DNA of 12,466 nucleotides from Candidatus Woesearchaeota archaeon (GTDB taxonomy: Archaea; Nanobdellota; Nanobdellia; Nanobdellales; Nanobdellaceae): NCBI GenBank assembly GCA_964468425.1, contig CAYXSZ010000004.1, positions 1 through 12,466 of the forward strand. Direction: 5' to 3'. The stretch's first letter is position 1. The number at the start of each line of letters is the position of its first letter. A program made the position numbers and the translations under genes. Under the pieces are notes generated by a model, which saw only the letters and a list, made by a program, of their open reading frames with translations, was not told where the DNA came from and ran no database searches. Shown here in pieces: positions 1,922 through 9,761 of the stretch.

Positions 1922-2812
1922 TTGAACTTTCCAAGACCCGACGCTAGAAAGATCTTAAAAAATTACTTGAGCTACCTTTCGTATCTATTTTTTAAGAAAG
2001 TATTTCTATTTGGGTTTGCTGTGTATTTCGCGGAAAGAATCTCCGTAAACGCTGTATTTACTTTTATTTTGTTTTGTTTCAACTATCTATCGGTTTACTT
2101 TGGAAACGACCTAATAGATAGAAGGTTTGATAAGGATAGAAAATTTCTTTTGGACTACAAGCTGCGAATGTCTGAAAGGACGTTGCTTTATCTCTTCATC
2201 TCACACTCAATAATACCATTTGCGATTCTATCTGCGATTAATCCGAGAATAGCTATCGTTAGCTTTTTAGCCTCTGCATTTGGCGTCGTAAGAAGTTATT
2301 TTAGGAAACCTGCGATCAGAGAATTTACTTTGTTTTTACTGCAAATCATACAACTATTTTTGATGTTCGATATGTTGGGAGCTGTAGACGAATTTGTTGA
2401 ACATATATTTTTAATAACGTTGTTTTCCTTGATGTACACGGTTTATTATTACTTTCATAAAATTCCTGAGAAGGGGGAAGCGTTGTCGAAAACAATTGCA
2501 TACATTCTATTGTGTATTATCGTAAATGTGTTTGCACTTGCCGAGGTGGAGGACATAATAACTCTACTATACGCTGTTGGAGTCGTTCCTGGTCTCGTGT
2601 ACACTCGGAGAATGTTTGTCGGTAGTGATCTTAAAACAGAGAGCTTCAAGAAGACAGTAATAGCATTTCACTTGCTTGGCTTGTTTTCTGGAGCATTGCT
2701 CATGGCTCTAGGTTTGCTTCACGCAAAAATATACTTAAATATTTGTAATACGCAGCTCAGCTCCTTATGTTACCTGGTTAACTCATTGAAAGGGCTAACA
2801 CTAAATTGGTAG
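1922..2812 (+). CDS. Polytopic membrane protein, divergent UbiA-prenyltransferase-like.
   Basis: About 8-9 hydrophobic helices. After the second helix there is an NDLIDRRFD sequence matching the first UbiA Asp-rich motif NxxxDxxxD. I could not find a clear second Asp-rich motif or RPxPSG. The only start that retains TM1 is TTG 1922, 3 nt after the rpoD stop. Confidence 0.5.
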   Translation: MNFPRPDARKILKNYLSYLSYLFFKKVFLFGFAVYFAERISVNAVFTFILFCFNYLSVYFGNDLIDRRFDKDRKFLLDYKLRMSERTLLYLFISHSIIPFAILSAINPRIAIVSFLASAFGVVRSYFRKPAIREFTLFLLQIIQLFLMFDMLGAVDEFVEHIFLITLFSLMYTVYYYFHKIPEKGEALSKTIAYILLCIIVNVFALAEVEDIITLLYAVGVVPGLVYTRRMFVGSDLKTESFKKTVIAFHLLGLFSGALLMALGLLHAKIYLNICNTQLSSLCYLVNSLKGLTLNW

Positions 2813-2909
2813 TGGGCCCGCCGGGATTCGAACCCGGGGCCTCCGGCTTTCTCAGTGTCAAGAGCCCGACCTTATAAGGCCGGCGCTCTCACCGCTGAGC
2901 TACGGGCCC
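2813..2909 (-). tRNA. tRNA-Ile, anticodon UAU, with a 24-nt intron at the canonical 37/38 position.
   Basis: Hand-folded cloverleaf: GGGCCCG-UA-GCUC-AGCGGUGA-GAGC-G-CCGGC-CU[UAU]A/intron/A-GCCGG-AGGCC-CCGGG-UUCGAAU-CCCGG-CGGGCCC-A. That is 73 nt of mature sequence plus 24 nt of intron, 97 nt in total. No CCA is encoded. Confidence 0.8.
2849..2872 (-). other. tRNA intron with bulge-helix-bulge geometry.
   Basis: Intron sequence is AGGUCGGGCUCUUGACACUGAGAA. Its 3' UGAG pairs with loop nucleotides C32-A35 to form the 4-bp central helix. That helix is flanked by 3-nt bulges UA|A and AA|A, which place both splice sites symmetrically. An inner GUC/GAC helix closes the intron. Confidence 0.7.
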
Positions 2910-2919
2910 AATTTCTTTT

Positions 2920-3381
2920 TTAAGGTTGATTAGTTTTTAAATCTATTTCCTTTACTACGAATCTTTTACACAAGCTCCCGCAGCGGTGACAAATTTCTCT
3001 GTTAGTAATCCTTTTACAGTTTTCGCAGAAAAAACAATACACCAACGCCTTTTCAATTTGAACGTCTCCTTGAAACTTAATTCCTAGAAAGTAACATAAG
3101 TTCTGGATATGAAAGTCGTTCGTACATAACACGCAATCGTCTTTGTGCTCTAAAGCGAGTGCAACGAGCTTTAGATCAGCGTCAGATAAGTAACCAAGAA
3201 CTCCAATCTCTTCAGCCACCTTTTTAACCTTATCGAGGAACTCTCTTTTGACTGAAATGGTTTTTACATTTCCAAGCGCCTTTGCAAACCCCTCGCTCCT
3301 CGCTTCTTCAAGAATTTCCTTAACAGTGTATCCATCCTCGTAGGGATGCTTTTTTAGGTAGGAAAGATCTAGTATTTTCAT
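2920..3381 (-). CDS. nob1: Nob1-like endoribonuclease (PIN domain plus C-terminal zinc ribbon).
   Basis: N-terminal MKILDLS supplies the PIN acidic residue. LSDADLKLVALALEHKDDCVLCTNDFHIQNLCYFLGIKF matches the archaeal Nob1 core (LSxaDxxvLALA...TDDysiQNva). CENC...CHRCG is a C4 zinc ribbon. Confidence 0.7.
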   Translation of the reverse strand: MKILDLSYLKKHPYEDGYTVKEILEEARSEGFAKALGNVKTISVKREFLDKVKKVAEEIGVLGYLSDADLKLVALALEHKDDCVLCTNDFHIQNLCYFLGIKFQGDVQIEKALVYCFFCENCKRITNREICHRCGSLCKRFVVKEIDLKTNQP

Positions 3382-3420: not shown

Positions 3421-3491
3421 TGGGCCCGGGGGGATTCGAACCCCCGTCATCGGGTCTGGAGCCCGACAGCCTGCCGCTAGCCGACGGGCCC
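3421..3491 (-). tRNA. tRNA-Trp, anticodon CCA, no intron.
   Basis: GGGCCCG-UC-GGCU-AGCGGCA-GGCU-G-UCGGG-CU[CCA]GA-CCCGA-UGAC-GGGGG-UUCGAAU-CCCCC-CGGGCCC-A, 71 nt. The D stem has two G-U pairs. No CCA is encoded. Confidence 0.85.
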
Positions 3492-3605: not shown

Positions 3606-3914
3606 CTAGAATTCTTCTTCAACCTCGAGGTATCCATTTCTCCTCAACCATTCAACCTCGGTTGGGAGGTAAATATAGATTATGTCTCCCTTTTTGTCTC
3701 CTTCAATTTCCCAAGGATCTACGATTACGTAATCTCCCTTTCTAAGCCAAATTCTTCGGGAAATCTTCTTGGGAACTCGACAAATTCTTACTTTACCGTC
3801 CAGACACCTAACCTTAGCGTGAGCCCATCCAACGAGCTCCTCGATTATACCAATAACCTGCCTTCCTTTTGGGAGAGGAACTTTACCCTCCTTTTCTTCA
3901 GATTTCTTACCCAT
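3606..3914 (-). CDS. eif1a: Translation initiation factor aIF-1A.
   Basis: S1/OB core VIGIIEELVGWAHAKVRCLDGKVRICRVPKKISRRIWLRKGDYVIVDPWEIEGDKKGDIIYIY matches the aIF1A/eIF1A family. The protein ends in an acidic-aromatic tail, LEVEEEF. Confidence 0.9.
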   Translation of the reverse strand: MGKKSEEKEGKVPLPKGRQVIGIIEELVGWAHAKVRCLDGKVRICRVPKKISRRIWLRKGDYVIVDPWEIEGDKKGDIIYIYLPTEVEWLRRNGYLEVEEEF

Positions 3915-3954
3915 TTAGGGTAAGGATGTTAAAAAATAAATGTTAATTGGGTGT

Positions 3955-4116
3955 TTACTCTTCTTCCTCTAGAAATTCTTCCTCCTCTTCGAAAAGTTCT
4001 TCTTCTTCCTCGAAGAACTCCTCTTCAAATTCTTCCTCCTCGTCAAAAACGAATTCGTCTTCGAATTCGTCTTCCTCTTGGAGTCTCAAGATGAGCTCGT
4101 CAACAGTCATATCCAT
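3955..4116 (-). CDS. Hypothetical hyper-acidic, Phe-punctuated microprotein (53 aa, or 51 aa if translation starts at ATG 4110).
   Basis: Hand translation: MDMTVDELILRLQEEDEFEDEFVFDEEEEFEEEFFEEEEELFEEEEEFLEEEE*. It has an ATG start and a TAA stop. A TATA-like ttttttaaaaatat (4127-4140, minus-strand reading) lies upstream. It has the same orientation as all neighbouring genes. The track shows only the antisense poly-Ser ORF. Confidence 0.5.
   Translation of the reverse strand: MDMTVDELILRLQEEDEFEDEFVFDEEEEFEEEFFEEEEELFEEEEEFLEEEE
4051..4074. repeat. Perfect 12-nt tandem duplication, gaattcgtcttc x2.
   Basis: Read directly at 4051-4062 and 4063-4074. On the minus strand it encodes the EDEF-EDEF unit of the acidic ORF. 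It sits inside a longer GAA/GAG-TTC low-complexity tract (3958-4080). Confidence 0.9.
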
Positions 4117-4154
4117 CTATCAACAGATATTTTTAAAAAAGTTTCGCAGGGAGT

Positions 4155-4751
4155 TCACAACCTCACTGCGACCGTGACTTTATAAACTTTTTTTGAGGAA
4201 ATTTTGTCGTATGTCACCAGCTTCCTCGAGATCTTTATCGAACTCGAGATCGCTCGAAGGTATTTTAGGAGCTTCTTGAACTCGAGGCGGTTGAGTTTGA
4301 AGTACAGATCAATGCCTTCGGGAAGCAACTTACAATTTACTGGAAAAAATCGATTTGAAAGTTCTTTTGCGATTTGCTCTACCTTTGTTTTTTCTCCACG
4401 GAGCTGGATCTTGTAGTTATACGATCTAGGGTTAAGATATCTCTTACATTCGTTGCAGATAAATTGTTTCTCGGAGAATTCTATTTGTATCACGACGTTG
4501 TCTGATAGAACTTCTATGTGAGTTTCGCATACTTTAACATCCCCACCAAACTCTTCCTTTATTTTGTTTATTAGATCATCACGCGTATAAATCTTGTTTT
4601 CATATAGAACTCTTCCGCAGATCGAGCAAACCTTGACATTTCGCCTCTTTTTTATGAACTTCCTCGAAACCTCTCGGTAACACTCTTCGCATAAGCCATT
4701 ACGGAGCTTTTTTGCTTCTTTTCCACACCTAGCGCATATTCTCCTGTACAT
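4155..4751 (-). CDS. NMD3-family protein (large-subunit ribosome biogenesis factor homologue), short form.
   Basis: The N-terminus has paired Cys clusters, CARCG...GLCEEC and CSICG, plus a later CNEC, resembling the NMD3 N-terminal zinc-binding region. It overlaps the upstream DUF424 gene by 23 nt. Confidence 0.6.
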   Translation of the reverse strand: MYRRICARCGKEAKKLRNGLCEECYREVSRKFIKKRRNVKVCSICGRVLYENKIYTRDDLINKIKEEFGGDVKVCETHIEVLSDNVVIQIEFSEKQFICNECKRYLNPRSYNYKIQLRGEKTKVEQIAKELSNRFFPVNCKLLPEGIDLYFKLNRLEFKKLLKYLRAISSSIKISRKLVTYDKISSKKVYKVTVAVRL

Positions 4752-5476: not shown

Positions 5477-6064
5477 TTATTTTAAGATTTTAAGCTTTCC
5501 GAGAGAAGCTTCGTAGATCTCTCCGAGAGCCAGGAGCTCTTCAACAATCTCCTCGACTTTTTCGAGTTCGATCGCCAAGTGTTCTGATAATTCTTTAGTG
5601 GTCACTCCATCTCCCTTATCTAATTCTTCTATAGCCTTGAGAATTAGAGATCTTAAGTCTTTTTTAGTAGGAGATTTTGGAACTTGCTCTGGGATTTGTT
5701 TCTGTTCCTCTCTCTTTTCTTTTTGTTCCTCTGGTTCGCGTTTGGGCTTTGACCTTCTCTTGTAGAGTTCGACGTGCCTTTTTCTCCAAAAAACTTCTTC
5801 TTCTGGGGAGATTTCCACCATCCTATCCGGAGCTATGTAGATGGTGTCTTTGAATGTTCTAACTCTTCCGAGAACGAGGATCGTTGAAAACTCCTTAAGT
5901 TCGAGCTTTTCAAAAGAACGAACCGTAACTTTTCCAAAGGGATCTAGAACTATTAAATCGTTGTACTTTGGTTTCTTGACCAGCTTGACGACCTTTCCGA
6001 TTATGCAAACTCTTTTGTTGATGTAATTGCTTACATCCCTGGAGAAGATTGGTGTGTACATCAT
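5477..6064 (-). CDS. RPA32/RPA2/Stn1-like protein: N-terminal OB fold, charged linker and C-terminal winged helix.
   Basis: OB pattern: KRVCIIGKVVKLVKKPKYNDLIVLDPFGKVTVRSF...ILVLGRVRTFKDTIYIAPDRMVEI. A K/E/P-rich linker follows. The C-terminal wH ends EELLALGEIYEASLGKLKILK. The ATG overlaps the MCM stop (ATGA). Confidence 0.55.
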   Translation of the reverse strand: MMYTPIFSRDVSNYINKRVCIIGKVVKLVKKPKYNDLIVLDPFGKVTVRSFEKLELKEFSTILVLGRVRTFKDTIYIAPDRMVEISPEEEVFWRKRHVELYKRRSKPKREPEEQKEKREEQKQIPEQVPKSPTKKDLRSLILKAIEELDKGDGVTTKELSEHLAIELEKVEEIVEELLALGEIYEASLGKLKILK

Positions 6065-8538
6065 CCCGCGATCTTATAATGTCCTTGCTTGCACTCGTAG
6101 ATCTCTCCCTCCCGTAGCAATTTTTCTATGGTTTCCCTTACTTTATCTTCCTCGATTTTTTGCTCCTTCGCTGCGTTAATTATCTCTTCGAGTGGAACCC
6201 CATCTGGAAAGTCCTTCTGGAGATTCTTGATAATGTCGTAGATCTTTGAAAGCCTGGAGCGTTGCGTTGATGAAATGCCGACAGTTAGGATATCTATGTC
6301 TAGAGTCTGGGTCTCTGGGTTAATTCCGACTTCCTTTAAACTCTTCATCAAAAGCGATTTGGCGACCTCCACATCCTCTTCCGTTACCTTCTTCGATAGC
6401 CTAGCTCGAGCAGACGCTTCTGCTAGACGAATTATAGACTCTAGTTGCCTAGCGGTGATTGGGATGGTTTGTTGATCTTTTGAAGCTTTTCTCAGGGTTA
6501 GATAAAACTGCATAACCTTTTCCTTCGCAGACTCCGTCCATTCTGGGTTAATCTTCTTAGCGTAGATGATGTACTTTCTGAAGAGTTCTGGAGGGATTAT
6601 GCTCTCCTTAGCTTCGGTCAACCCCCTAACGACTCCCTCCGCGACCATTTTATCGATGTCCTCATCAGGTTCGTCTCTGAGAACGAAAATCAAGTCAAAA
6701 CGATTAATGATTGTTGGGGGCAGGTCGATTTGATCTACGACGCTTTTCATCTTATCCCACCGTCCAAACTTAGGATTCGCAGCAGCTAGAACAGCTACTT
6801 CGCTCTTGAGCGTCGCATGAATGTTCGCTTTGTTTACCGTAATTGTTTGCTGTTCTAGGGCTTCGTGAAGCGCGAGCATGTCTTCTTTATCTACCTTATC
6901 GAGCTCGTCGATGCAGTTGTGGACTATCACGTCGTTCGCCAGAAAGTTTCGATAACCCGGGACGCACAGGTCGTAAACGTATCCCTCGTAAGGAATTTCA
7001 CTCACATCAATTACTCTAGCTCGCGTCTTGCCAACGAGAACATCCCCTTCTTTTACTTTTTTAGCTGGAACCCATTCTTCGTCGTCCAAAAGAATTAAGT
7101 GATCTGGCGTCGCAAGGAGTTCTTTAGAGTCGTATGCGATTTTTATTAGAATTCCCTCGTACCACCTTCTTGCGACTAAGAGCGCTTTCTCTTTAACTAA
7201 CTTCTTAAACGTTAGGCTGTACGAGGTTGTTAATTGATTTATTGGAGAGACTTCCACTTCTTTTCCGTTCTTCAACTTGAGGGTTATGTGGTTCTTGAAT
7301 AAAGACGAAATTTTTACTGGTCGATCGTTGATGAGAACTTCCGTATCGGGGTGGAGGCACACTATTCCTCCCGAAGCTAGGACGAGCGCTCCCGCCTCCA
7401 AAGCCCATCCTCCCTTTAGGAACTCGTCTCTTCTCACGTTTGCCGTAATTCCTACTGCCGAGGCGGTTACTCCGGAAACGAAGCGAGACTTCGGCGCTAT
7501 TTTGTTGACGAACTGAAGAATTTGGGACTTGGCAACTCCAGGATCTCCGATTAACAGGATGTGAATGTCTCCTCGAACCTTGGTTCCGTCCGACCTCACT
7601 TTCTTGACCCCCCCGACGAGTTGGAGGACTATGGCTTTTTTTATCGGATCGTATTGTTTTCCGTAAACGTTCGGGGCGATGGAGGATGCCAGGGTCGAAA
7701 GAGTATCTCCAGACTTCGCTATTTCCTTGATTTTTATCACATCCTCTTCAGATATCTTCACATCCTCAATATCCTTTTCCACAGGTTCAATGTACAATGT
7801 GTTAATCATCAGATCCAAGACTGCTTGGGACTTGGATGTTTGGGAGGCTTCCACAATTCCAACAATCTTCACCCTGGTTCCCGGGATGGTTCTTCTCTCC
7901 ATCTTCGGTTCGCAGAGATCTTCCGTCAGGAAAACGATCATTTGCGCTGGTTGTTCTCCTCTTTCTATTTGATCTGGGGTCTCCTCGACAAGTAGCCTTT
8001 GAATGTCGATTATTCGCTTGTCCACTTCTATGAACTTTCCTTCAGATCTTCCACAAACTTCACATACCTTTGGCTTCTCGATTTTGAACTTGACGAACCT
8101 TTCCTTTACTTTACCCTCGCCATTTCCTAAAAGGTTCAACCAGAATTCCCTGCCGCAATCTGTGTGATAGTACTTTACCGCGACTACAACAGGTCTTACT
8201 TCCGTTGAAACCTTGATTACACCTTCTGTCTCAACGAGTTTTCCGATGTGTTCGGAGCGGATGTCCCTGATGCGTATTTTCCTGTCTTCTGGAAGATCCT
8301 TAATTCTTACTCGAAGTTCCACGCCCAGCTTTTGCTTTAAAAATTCCTCGATGACTTTCAACGTTTTTTTCGGATTGTCGAGAACTTCTTCAGCTAATTC
8401 GATGTCGACCGTCGCGAGCGCCTTGTGCGGGATAACCACCGAATTTCTCCCCTCCTTTAGAGCTTCCGAGATGTTTTCTTTGATGATTGAGTATAACTCG
8501 TTGAGTTTCTTGAGTAGCTTATCGTTTTGGTCATCCAT
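6061..8538 (-). CDS. mcm: MCM replicative helicase precursor (825 aa; 677 aa after intein removal).
   Basis: N-terminal Zn motif HTDCG...CEVCG. Walker A ILLIGDPGVAKSQ. Walker B is split as GGIV / CIDELDK by an intein. Arginine-finger region SRFDLIF. C-terminal winged helix LLREGEIYECKQGHYKI. Confidence 0.95.
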   Translation of the reverse strand: MDDQNDKLLKKLNELYSIIKENISEALKEGRNSVVIPHKALATVDIELAEEVLDNPKKTLKVIEEFLKQKLGVELRVRIKDLPEDRKIRIRDIRSEHIGKLVETEGVIKVSTEVRPVVVAVKYYHTDCGREFWLNLLGNGEGKVKERFVKFKIEKPKVCEVCGRSEGKFIEVDKRIIDIQRLLVEETPDQIERGEQPAQMIVFLTEDLCEPKMERRTIPGTRVKIVGIVEASQTSKSQAVLDLMINTLYIEPVEKDIEDVKISEEDVIKIKEIAKSGDTLSTLASSIAPNVYGKQYDPIKKAIVLQLVGGVKKVRSDGTKVRGDIHILLIGDPGVAKSQILQFVNKIAPKSRFVSGVTASAVGITANVRRDEFLKGGWALEAGALVLASGGIVCLHPDTEVLINDRPVKISSLFKNHITLKLKNGKEVEVSPINQLTTSYSLTFKKLVKEKALLVARRWYEGILIKIAYDSKELLATPDHLILLDDEEWVPAKKVKEGDVLVGKTRARVIDVSEIPYEGYVYDLCVPGYRNFLANDVIVHNCIDELDKVDKEDMLALHEALEQQTITVNKANIHATLKSEVAVLAAANPKFGRWDKMKSVVDQIDLPPTIINRFDLIFVLRDEPDEDIDKMVAEGVVRGLTEAKESIIPPELFRKYIIYAKKINPEWTESAKEKVMQFYLTLRKASKDQQTIPITARQLESIIRLAEASARARLSKKVTEEDVEVAKSLLMKSLKEVGINPETQTLDIDILTVGISSTQRSRLSKIYDIIKNLQKDFPDGVPLEEIINAAKEQKIEEDKVRETIEKLLREGEIYECKQGHYKIAG
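6916..7359 (-). mobile_element. Class 1 mini-intein (148 aa, no homing-endonuclease domain) inserted in the MCM Walker B motif.
   Basis: Residues 394-541. Block A is CLHPDTEVL, block B is ATPDHLIL (TxxH), and blocks F/G are VYDLCVPGYRNFLANDVIVHN, followed by the +1 Cys of CIDELDK. Junction codons were verified on the sequence: TGC at 7359-7357, AAC at 6918-6916, TGC at 6915-6913. Confidence 0.9.
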
Positions 8539-8580: not shown

Positions 8581-9579
8581 TTAAGAAGAAAGCTTTTCTT
8601 CGATTCGGATTAGTTCGTTGAGCTTCGCTATTCTCTCGCCGTTTACGATGCCAAACTTTACGATTGGTGTCTCCAGACCAACTGCCAGGTGGGCTAAAAT
8701 GTTGCTTTCGGTTTCTCCAGATCTATGAGAAAGAACTGGGATTACGCCGTGCTTTTTGCACAGTTCTACCGCCTTAACCGTTTGAACAAGCGATCCAACT
8801 TGGTTCGGCTTTATTATCACCGCGTTGACGGATCGCTTTTTTATGGCTTCCTCGATCCTCTCCGGATTCGTCACCGTTAGATCGTCCCCGACGATGAGTC
8901 TGCTCGTTCTCCTGTTGAGGTCCGCGAAACCTTCAAAGTCTTCCTCGTTAAGCGGATCTTCGATGTAGTAAATATCGAACGCGTCAGCTAGCTCGAGAAC
9001 CTTCTCTATTTGTTCTTCCCTGGTCAGCTCCCAGCCTTCTTTCCTGTATATGTACTTTTCTCCATCGAAGAGCTGGGAAGCTGCTATGTCCACCCCGAGG
9101 TCGACTTCGACGCCCTCCTCAGATTTGATCCGGTCTCTAACCTCGTTGAGGAGAGCCAGCGTTTCCTCTGTTCTCAGCGTGGTGACCCAAGCTCCTTCGT
9201 CGTTTTTAGCTCCAAGAAATCCCCTGTCAATAATCGAAAGCTTTTCTTGGAGAACTTTATGAATTAAAGAGTTTATGAAGATTCCGAGGGAAACCGATTT
9301 CGTTTTTGGGAGGACGAGAAACTCCTGGATATCCGAACCTTTCCACTTAGCATGAGCTCCGCCTCCAACGACGTTCGAAAGCGGTCTTATATCCAGCTTT
9401 GGGTTCTTGTTGAAGAAAGCGTAGACCGGTAGTCCAACGTAGTCGGACCAAGCTCTCAGAATTGCGTATTCGGTAGCGATTAGCGTATTAGCTCCGTACT
9501 TATCGAAACCTCCCATTCGAAAAAAGTAATCCTCTAGATCTTCCAGATCGCTAAGCGTTTGAATGTCGAACGTCTTCAA
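8581..9579 (-). CDS. eno: Enolase, C-terminal 332-codon segment (frameshifted gene; the TTG start in the track is probably not real).
   Basis: Enolase signatures are present: GANTLIA, NVVGGGAHA...DIQEFLVLP, NDEG, VDIAASQ, YIEDP, IVGDDL, IIKPNQVG, SHRSGETE, GERIAKLNELIRIEE. The metal-binding and catalytic positions look intact. Confidence 0.85.
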   Translation of the reverse strand: MKTFDIQTLSDLEDLEDYFFRMGGFDKYGANTLIATEYAILRAWSDYVGLPVYAFFNKNPKLDIRPLSNVVGGGAHAKWKGSDIQEFLVLPKTKSVSLGIFINSLIHKVLQEKLSIIDRGFLGAKNDEGAWVTTLRTEETLALLNEVRDRIKSEEGVEVDLGVDIAASQLFDGEKYIYRKEGWELTREEQIEKVLELADAFDIYYIEDPLNEEDFEGFADLNRRTSRLIVGDDLTVTNPERIEEAIKKRSVNAVIIKPNQVGSLVQTVKAVELCKKHGVIPVLSHRSGETESNILAHLAVGLETPIVKFGIVNGERIAKLNELIRIEEKLSS

Positions 9580-9761
9580 AACATCGCGAGATCCTCGTTA
9601 AACCTCTTTACTGCTAGAACGGGATCTAGATACTTTGCCTCGTGCGTACCTGCACTCGCTCCCTGAGGTGCAGCCTCGCTGAACCCGTTTATCTCTACCT
9701 CTATCGTTGGATCTCCTCTCGAGTTTAGAACCAGCCTAGCCCTCGCTTCCTTTATCCTCAT
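9576..9761 (-). CDS. eno: Enolase, N-terminal 61-codon segment (frameshifted gene).
   Basis: MRIKEARARLVLNSRGDPTIEVEI...QGASAGTHEA is the enolase N-terminal domain, including the SGASTG-like loop. It terminates at a TGA created by a frame change inside a T4 run. Confidence 0.85.
   Translation of the reverse strand: MRIKEARARLVLNSRGDPTIEVEINGFSEAAPQGASAGTHEAKYLDPVLAVKRFNEDLAMF

Follow-up and report, generated by a model that had tools for sequence, protein, structure and literature searches.

A family of hyper-acidic microproteins encoded directly upstream of aIF1A in heat-loving nanoarchaea

Introduction

Is a short, extremely acidic open reading frame (ORF) between two translation genes a gene at all, and if so, why does it stand beside an initiation factor? 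The question is raised by a 12,466-nucleotide stretch of the archaeal contig CAYXSZ010000004.1 (GenBank assembly GCA_964468425.1; the whole stretch is called the window below), in which a 53-codon micro-ORF lies on the minus strand at 3955-4116, between the genes for an NMD3-family protein and for aIF1A. A first-pass annotation, made from the letters of the window without database searches, had drawn attention to this ORF and had considered for its product a decoy for a partner of the aIF1A tail, a chaperone for ribosomal proteins, or a nucleic-acid mimic. Here we report that the micro-ORF belongs to an undescribed microprotein family, which is restricted to Nanopusillaceae, a group of heat-loving nanoarchaea, and that its members, composed of a short head and an acidic tail punctuated with aromatic residues, are encoded directly upstream of aIF1A in every locus with a readable context. 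By analogy, this lineage-restricted and tightly aIF1A-linked family would be functionally akin to those acidic disordered regulators that act on nucleic-acid-binding OB folds. A conserved microprotein of this kind escapes notice through size cut-offs and low-complexity filters, and most annotations omit the gene.

Results

Layout of the micro-ORF

The micro-ORF runs from an ATG at 4116 to a TAA stop at 3955-3957, and its translation is MDMTVDELILRLQEEDEFEDEFVFDEEEEFEEEFFEEEEELFEEEEEFLEEEE. Asp and Glu make up 32 of the 53 residues, and with eight Phe and a single basic residue the protein has a net charge of -31; the coordinates, length, start codon and residue counts given in the first-pass annotation agree exactly with the recomputed translation and composition. 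The N-terminal head, MDMTVDELILRLQ (4078-4116, minus strand), is predicted by AlphaFold (AF2) to form a short amphipathic helix. It is followed by a 40-residue tail (3958-4077, minus strand), in which Asp/Glu runs are broken by Phe, Leu or Val and which ends in EEEE, with no aromatic residue at the C-terminus. Within the tail-coding part lies a perfect 12-nt tandem duplication that had been noticed earlier, GAAGACGAATTC twice, encoding EDEF-EDEF (4050-4074; 2.1 copies at 100% match in TRF). The accompanying suggestion that the tract may expand and contract holds between lineages, which differ by in-frame indels, but not within the population: the identical ORF, with 0 nucleotide differences, was gene-called on six contigs of hydrothermal-vent and related metagenomes that share one gene order. 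When the window and the loci L001-L028 were scanned, 25-residue stretches with at least 60% acidic residues occurred only in family members and in two segments of long proteins.

The A/T box TTTTTTAAAAATAT at 4127-4140 on the minus strand, 11-24 nt before the ATG, is a putative TATA-type promoter of a leaderless-type transcript. Both this box and the common orientation of the neighbours, which had been pointed out before, are borne out, since every flanking gene between 2920 and 11719 lies on the minus strand. On the other side, a T-rich spacer of 40 nt (3915-3954, minus strand) separates the stop codon from aIF1A and contains TTTATTTTTTAA at 3940-3929, a candidate oligo-T terminator of the micro-ORF, a candidate promoter of aIF1A, or both.

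An undescribed family in Nanopusillaceae

A homology search with the single peptide returned nothing at E <= 0.01, its own deposited copies included, because the composition correction of HMMER suppresses so acidic a peptide. Relatives were traced by synteny, with aIF1A as the anchor in reference genomes, metagenomes and assemblies, and by profiles afterwards. The aIF1A homologues place the window in Nanopusillaceae (Nanoarchaeota/DPANN), and wherever an aIF1A carries the loop G[WY][AG]H and its upstream region is on the contig, a small ORF is found 29-59 nt upstream on the same strand, in every lineage. At least 25 distinct orthologues of 31-58 aa were collected from these nanoarchaea. They include those of L031 (48 aa, MDMTAEELVFKFDELEEEEFFEEFEEEELFEEEELFEEEEEFEEFEEE), L035, a Nanopusillus sp. 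(58 aa, MTFDEYRWKLQDEEEDEEEWWDEEEEFWDEEEEWDEWWDEEEEEWDEESEEEWLEEEE), L041 (51 aa, MAVDELEIKLRKYEDEEEDWDEEEEEWEEEFDEEWEEFDEEWEEEEEWEEE), L039 (39 aa, MDWDELKRRLGDEDEFDEEDEGEWEDVEEEEWEDWDEEW) and L007 (41 aa, MEDWLRLQLDEEGEEFWDEEGEEEWWEEEEEWEEEWEEEEW), the orthologues of L030 and L033, which have 42 and 43 aa, and those of L043, L044, L037/38, L045 and L046, with 31-56 aa.

Profile searches added 14 further stand-alone members of 40-51 aa. The 'Uncharacterized protein Nst1_021' of Ca. Nanobsidianus stetteri is one of these, and its aIF1A gene begins 32 nt downstream. An exhaustive profile search of 1.84 billion representatives gave four significant matches, all short and stand-alone, and no fusion to a larger protein or member of another type. 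Neither Pfam nor NCBIfam matched the window peptide, 12 family members had no Pfam match at E <= 1, and the family profile had none among PDB sequences at the same threshold. A scan of viral contigs with aIF1A as the query found no relatives, and searches of the literature by motif string, by locus tag and for small acidic proteins of nanoarchaea gave nothing relevant. The earlier statement that no described family is recognisable therefore stands, with the addition that one member, Nst1_021, had already been deposited as uncharacterized; that label is the only name found. Because no Ribosomal_60s or other Pfam match was obtained and the head is only 6-21 residues long, the family is not assigned to the archaeal stalk protein aP1, which has a dimerisation domain of ~60 aa at its N-terminus and an acidic hinge that closes with a conserved hydrophobic peptide for GTPase binding.

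The gene is easily missed by annotation. The gene table of N. acidilobi passes straight from Nps_00130 (NMD3) to Nps_00135 (aIF1A) and leaves the orthologue unannotated; no arCOG is assigned to Nst1_021 in the table for N. acidilobi and Nst1, and the micro-ORF was left uncalled in two of the NCBI assemblies examined.

The frame is kept across diverged genomes

Could the tract be non-functional, a low-complexity GAR-rich intergenic stretch that is open by chance? GAR-rich DNA is indeed open in several frames by its composition, and the failure of the single peptide to find matches under the HMMER correction would suit this explanation as well. The sense frame alone, however, is fully open in 13 of 13 orthologues tested, with an ATG at the head and a stop right after the tract, and the ATG, stop and frame are kept across ~25 variants. 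The antisense (plus-strand) poly-Ser frame is open by composition and almost never has a start codon, while the remaining frames are broken in several lineages. The first-pass annotation had named loss of the minus-strand frame in relatives among the outcomes that would speak against a gene, and this loss was not seen in any tested orthologue.

A single substitution can turn any Glu codon into a stop codon, and in a neutral simulation an ORF of GAR codons stayed intact in ~1-2% of replicates at 0.5-0.8 substitutions per site, a survival that applies to each lineage. Even between the two closest lineages, 52% of aIF1A third positions differ, and the orthologues span aIF1A identities of 60-81% (the NMD3 identity of L007 is 32%). 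Among the non-acidic tail residues of the family, 81 of 102 are aromatic (53 Trp, 27 Phe and one Tyr). Phe and Trp codons are not single-step neighbours of Asp/Glu codons, so this enrichment is unreachable by single steps from them, and the residues that are single-step neighbours (Lys, Gln, Ala and His) are absent from the tails. The switch from Phe to Trp between lineages is conservative in the sense frame only, and indels between lineages are in-frame, as in the one-codon difference between L030 and L033. In most of 12 orthologues inspected, TTTAAAAA or a TTTATAA box lies ~13-30 nt before the ATG; the orthologous spacers to aIF1A are T-rich and have no Shine-Dalgarno-like G-run, and these boxes and spacers would fit leaderless-type transcripts.

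Because the frame is kept across diverged genomes, because neutral drift would close such an ORF and because its aromatics are enriched, we conclude on these sequence comparisons that the ORF is a genuine protein-coding gene. That the tract is open by chance is hardly credible, and this explanation is effectively refuted. The ratio of non-synonymous to synonymous change (dN/dS) was discarded as support for the exact sequence, as non-synonymous codon changes outnumber synonymous ones in the head when close lineages are compared; a claim of purifying selection must therefore be confined to residue class, frame and composition.

Read in the +1 frame of the same strand, the acidic tract encodes peptides rich in Lys, Arg and Gly, such as a 40-aa one that starts with ATG at L007 3860-3979 (plus strand; MKKAKNFGMKKEKRNGG...), and similar ones are found in L035, L037, L041 and L046. 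As a gene of its own this frame was rejected, since it is interrupted or startless in several orthologues, and it is probably a by-product of the GAR composition.

A short helical head and an acidic, aromatic-punctuated tail

The family shares one design, in which a short N-terminal amphipathic helix is followed by a disordered tail with two to five Asp/Glu per aromatic residue. Acid runs start at residues 7-22, and their modal length is three. Acidic residues account for 51-67% of the members, with net charges of -17 to -36. Most lineages punctuate the tail with Trp and the lineage of the window does so with Phe: there are 4-9 Trp codons per orthologue, or 8-9 Phe codons, dispersed rather than clustered, and the lineages of the window and L031 have no Trp codon. 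Among the 14 variants first compiled, eight have a C-terminal Trp or Tyr (...EEEW or ...EEEY).

The AlphaFold model of Nst1_021, built on a 12-sequence alignment, has an N-terminal helix at residues 3-16 (predicted local distance difference test ~88, then 73) and a tail of low-confidence coil. For the window protein, which has no Gly or Pro, AF2 on the single sequence gave a helix at residues 5-14 and a moderately confident long helix in place of the coil. The predicted template-modelling scores were 0.32-0.38, and these low-confidence models show a single helix or a helix plus coil and no compact fold. For comparison, folded DNA mimics of the Ocr and ArdA type carry their carboxylates on a stable fold, in an array like that of DNA.

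In the head, the pattern hydrophobic-x-x-[KR]-hydrophobic is common to the family, and in an MDWE subfamily both the head, MDWE[ED]LKR[RK].xE[LM][KR], and the Trp positions align. A resemblance of the head (LxxR[LI]xxL[KR]) to the ESCRT-III MIM1 motif was considered and dropped, the match being partial.

The micro-ORF stays with aIF1A when other neighbours change

The invariant downstream partner of the micro-ORF is the gene for aIF1A (3606-3914, minus strand), whose 102-aa product matches Pfam eIF-1a at 4.7e-19 and NCBIfam IF-1A at 7e-33 and ends in ...LEVEEEF, as the first-pass annotation had it. Upstream lies a short NMD3-family protein of 198 aa (4155-4751, minus strand; Pfam NMD3, 2.2e-20), the usual but not obligatory neighbour. 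Further minus-strand neighbours in the window are DUF424, aIF2-beta, an OB/winged-helix protein and an intein-containing MCM; the array of MCM, a 195-aa protein, aIF2-beta, DUF424 and NMD3 is conserved across the family.

The junction between the micro-ORF and aIF1A was never broken, so the synteny with aIF1A that had been proposed as a check is kept in every locus read. By comparison, L041 and L043 have no NMD3 at this position and DUF424 instead precedes the ORF; a divergent HisRS takes the place of NMD3 in L046, and in L035 NMD3 stands ~290 nt away. The genes downstream of aIF1A vary widely between loci. None of ~8 inferred breakpoints falls between the ORF and aIF1A, which by a rough estimate gives p~0.04 if three junctions are taken as equally breakable. 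The acidic ORF is absent from 22 outgroup DPANN loci, in which NMD3 or DUF424 directly precedes aIF1A. In the crenarchaeal host Acidilobus, the genes for NMD3 and aIF1A adjoin and no annotated gene lies between them. The earlier alternative of a chaperone for ribosomal proteins, which had leaned on NMD3 as the other neighbour, is weakened, because the ORF stays at aIF1A where NMD3 is missing, replaced or distant.

The same comparison bears on a broader possibility, namely that the micro-protein is a general polyanionic chaperone or nucleic-acid mimic with another or wider target and that its place beside aIF1A is historical. We regard this as unlikely. The tail would then bind basic nucleic-acid-binding proteins and keep them soluble, for instance ribosomal proteins, histones or OB folds of the RPA/MCM type, and may even serve as a heat-resistant 'entropic' protectant in thermophilic, genome-reduced cells. 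Extreme charge together with disorder would bind almost any basic surface, the locus stands among translation and replication genes (MCM, an OB/PCI protein, aIF2-beta, DUF424 and NMD3), the family is retained in very small genomes, and the head changes quickly, as disordered proteins of loose specificity do. A generalist, however, needs no strict adjacency, and the link to NMD3 is broken in L041, L043 and L046 whereas that to aIF1A never is; the aromatic punctuation and the aligned Trp positions also suggest specific contacts beyond charge. Prothymosin-alpha is a familiar case of charge-driven disordered binding to basic partners, and the AA-boxes of eIF5 and eIF2B-epsilon, which are acidic and aromatic, act in translation initiation from within a folded W2 HEAT domain and bind the K-boxes of eIF2-beta. 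Both differ from the micro-protein in being eukaryotic and unrelated to it in sequence, and we know of no K-boxes in archaeal aIF2-beta.

A candidate acidic tail for aIF1A, supplied in trans

The C-terminal tail of human eIF1A is acidic, with interspersed hydrophobic and aromatic residues. The eIF1A tail is disordered and dynamically covers the surface by which its own OB domain binds the ribosome, also when added in trans as a separate peptide, and it lowers the affinity for the 40S subunit (PMC5009744). Archaeal aIF1A has been stated to be without an acidic C-terminal tail (PMC9226500). By analogy, we tentatively favour the reading that the micro-protein acts in trans as a polyanionic partner of the ribosome-binding face of aIF1A, as the acidic tail does for eIF1A. 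Its N-terminal helix would dock the micro-protein, and its acidic and aromatic tail would imitate single-stranded RNA, the carboxylates taking the part of phosphates and the aromatics that of bases, and dynamically cover the basic ribosome- and RNA-binding face of the aIF1A OB fold. The covering would block non-specific RNA binding and tune 30S loading and release, and the micro-protein might also give a handle for aIF5B. It would amount to a separately encoded functional analogue of the eIF1A C-terminal tail, and also of the tails of T7 gp2.5 and SSB.

The comparison with the eIF1A tail, made already in the first-pass annotation, is reasonable in so far as that tail is acidic, disordered and active in trans (PMC5009744, PMC9226500); the DIDDI motif on which it had been drawn does not occur, the micro-protein C-termini being EEEE, EEEW or EEEY. 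Both are tied to e/aIF1A and are disordered, strongly acidic and interspersed with hydrophobic or aromatic residues. They differ in that the micro-protein is encoded by a separate upstream gene with its own ATG, stop and promoter-like box instead of forming a C-terminal extension, and in that it far exceeds the eIF1A tail in length and acidity, relies on Trp or Phe, brings an N-terminal helix of its own and shows no detectable homology.

In bacterial SSB, an acidic disordered tail with an aromatic end (...DDDIPF) folds on the OB cleft and recruits partners. The polyanionic, disordered tail of T7 gp2.5 also folds back on the OB cleft and recruits partners, and a parallel between it and the eIF1A tail has been drawn by the authors of that study (PMC5009744). 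The Trp or Tyr ends of eight of the 14 variants first compiled may be compared with these tails; the window protein has no such end. The SSB and gp2.5 tails are covalent, 10-25 residues long and at work in DNA replication, while the micro-protein is free and encoded beside an OB-fold translation factor.

The aIF1A of the clade is itself distinctive. Its N-terminal tail before the conserved Pro has a median of 10 residues as against 24 in outgroups (~14 shorter), its net charge is +2 as against +7 (~5 positive charges fewer), and its beta1-beta2 loop reads GWAH(A/V)(K/R)V where other archaea have GGSRxxV (window aIF1A and homologues P0001-P0029). In IF1 and eIF1A, the beta1-beta2 loop region faces the decoding-site rRNA. 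An origin of the micro-ORF by gene fission, with its head derived from the lost aIF1A N-tail, found no support in the sequences, as the similarity of the head to outgroup N-tails equals that of composition-matched shuffles (z = 0.3).

Two outgroup aIF1A have acidic N-terminal extensions, L028 3917-4267 (Pacearchaeota; MRDWKIKDKEEDKEKGGEEGEEGEEKE...) and L017 3935-4285 (MRDDEFFDSQETPVEGENQEF...), which recall the micro-ORF loosely and show no significant similarity to it. At the other end of the protein, many DPANN and some other archaeal aIF1A close an acidic stretch with Phe (...LEEEF, ...LDEF or ...NEF; L007-L028, P0001-P0029), so a short acidic-aromatic C-terminus is conserved, although archaeal aIF1A is said to have no C-terminal tail.

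That C-terminus is the starting point of another explanation, by which the micro-protein repeats, as a free molecule, the unit that ends aIF1A (EEEF) and either competes for the partner of this tail, presumably domain IV of aIF5B, or forms a bridge to it. The aIF1A of the clade and of many DPANN end in ...EEEF or ...DEF, the eight aromatic-ended variants close in a similar way with ...EEEW or ...EEEY, and the eukaryotic eIF1A C-terminus does bind domain IV of eIF5B (PMC5009744). In archaea, however, the aIF1A-aIF5B contact seen by cryo-EM is made by the alpha15 helix of aIF5B with the alpha3 helix and beta2-beta3 loop of aIF1A (PMC9226500), and the groove that binds the tail in eukaryotes is filled in A. 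pernix aIF5B by an additional helix at the C-terminus, presumably alpha15 (PMC5009744). The window protein, moreover, ends in EEEE. We therefore hold a decoy of this kind to be improbable.

Several observations weigh against a trans partnership with aIF1A. The likeness to the eIF1A tail is one of composition, not of homology. The in-clade aIF1A is less basic than that of outgroups and has no obvious need for a polyanionic shield, and the profile search found no fusion to aIF1A or another protein that could serve as a Rosetta stone. Between the two closest lineages, the window and L031, seven of the 13 head codons differ non-synonymously, most of them keeping the residue class (V>A, D>E, I>V, L>F and R>K). 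Adjacency to aIF1A could be plain inheritance or reflect a role in cis, and the N. acidilobi proteome, in which aIF1A and NMD3 were undetected and the orthologue is unannotated, is uninformative. Should the trans reading nevertheless be true, the tail function that steers scanning, start-codon commitment and hand-over to eIF5B in eukaryotes could exist as a separate subunit, and a simple two-protein system would be at hand to ask what such a tail does on an archaeal-type ribosome. Retention of the family in some of the smallest known cellular genomes argues for its importance to the cell.

A tRNA-Trp gene downstream and the case for a role in cis

A gene for tRNA-Trp(CCA) lies at 3421-3491 on the minus strand, 114 nt downstream of aIF1A (ARAGORN and Rfam). 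It adjoins aIF1A in 11 in-clade lineages, the window and ten others, and in none of the 22 outgroup loci. In nine lineages it is co-oriented, with gaps of -1 to 132 nt (among the loci with mapped positions, L030 2794-2864, L037 2800-2874, L041 2797-2867 and L048 3485-3555). It is inverted in L044 (2808-2878) and L046 (2231-2301), at 4 and 17 nt, and missing by aIF1A in L007 and L035. The company of a Trp-rich ORF and tRNA-Trp could be inherited synteny or a functional link.

The micro-ORF might act in cis as a leader, so that translation of its Asp/Glu and Trp/Phe codons reports ribosome, Mg2+ or Trp-tRNA status while the peptide is incidental; through termination in the spacer or through the choice of promoter, it would regulate aIF1A and also tRNA-Trp where that gene is co-oriented. 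We judge this reading unlikely. It would account for an adjacency that is never broken, for the T-rich spacer of 29-59 nt before aIF1A, and for tRNA-Trp after aIF1A within the clade only, with 4-9 Trp codons in most orthologues. The literature also offers a mechanism: N-proximal Asp/Glu runs destabilise translating ribosomes, an effect that MgtL uses as a sensor and that bulky residues relieve (10.1101/2021.02.02.429294; PMC9718836). The acid runs here begin after a bulky head, at residues 7-22, and are broken by aromatics of the kind reported to counteract the destabilisation, so the aromatic punctuation may partly serve translatability.

Like the leaders MgtL, trpL, pheL, hisL and TnaC, the micro-ORF is very short, lies right upstream of the gene that would be regulated and is rich in Asp/Glu or in codons for one amino acid, and a tRNA-Trp gene shares one module with the Trp-rich ORF. 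The differences are considerable. No hairpin terminator or antiterminator was found on the coding strand and no alternative hairpins as in attenuation; the A/T-rich spacer is short, with an oligo-T tract that would make archaeal-style termination possible. Leaderless promoters, one for the micro-ORF and another for aIF1A, are probable: both genes lack a Shine-Dalgarno-like element, and the TATA-like box of each stands at a leaderless distance, which suggests separate transcripts. The window and L031 have no Trp codons, and with the tRNA inverted in two lineages and absent in two, a Trp-sensing loop fails in ~6 of 14 lineages. The confident amphipathic head helix and the frequent C-terminal Trp resemble a finished protein. 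The known examples of such leaders are bacterial, and attenuation is, to our knowledge, not established in archaea, which we also count against a leader.

A stronger form of the idea, that micro-ORF, aIF1A and tRNA-Trp are a selected module, is improbable in our view. Translation of the acidic leader, rich in Trp codons and destabilising for ribosomes, would then sense the state of Trp-tRNA, Mg2+ or the ribosome and determine the expression of the core initiation factor aIF1A and, where co-oriented, of tRNA-Trp, in an attenuation-like feedback on the translation apparatus, a feedback for which we know of no described archaeal counterpart.

Other features of the window

Downstream of the tRNA-Trp gene, a Nob1-like PIN protein is encoded at 2920-3381 on the minus strand. 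In the upstream direction, the 195-aa protein between MCM and aIF2-beta (5477-6064, minus strand) has weak RPA_C and MCM winged-helix matches and a Lys/Glu-rich linker. The MCM helicase (6061-8538, minus strand) is 825 aa long, with an Intein_splicing match at residues ~400-541; the MCMs of related loci have 666-675 aa and no intein domain match, so the intein appears to be specific to the lineage of the window.

Enolase appears to be split into two minus-strand ORFs that overlap by 4 nt, a 332-aa TIM-barrel part (8581-9579) and a 61-aa ORF holding the start of the N-terminal domain (9576-9761); a split gene, as known from Nanoarchaeota, and a pseudogene with a frameshift are the two alternatives. 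A UbiA-like membrane protein on the plus strand (1922-2812) has 296 aa in the window, L001 and L003 and is called with 214 aa in the near-identical L002 (2028-2672), which suggests a strain-level truncation or frameshift. The adjoining tRNA-Leu(AAG) gene (2812-2909, minus strand) is reported as 97-98 nt long as against 85 nt for the tRNA-Leu of L041, and it might carry an intron besides its long variable arm.

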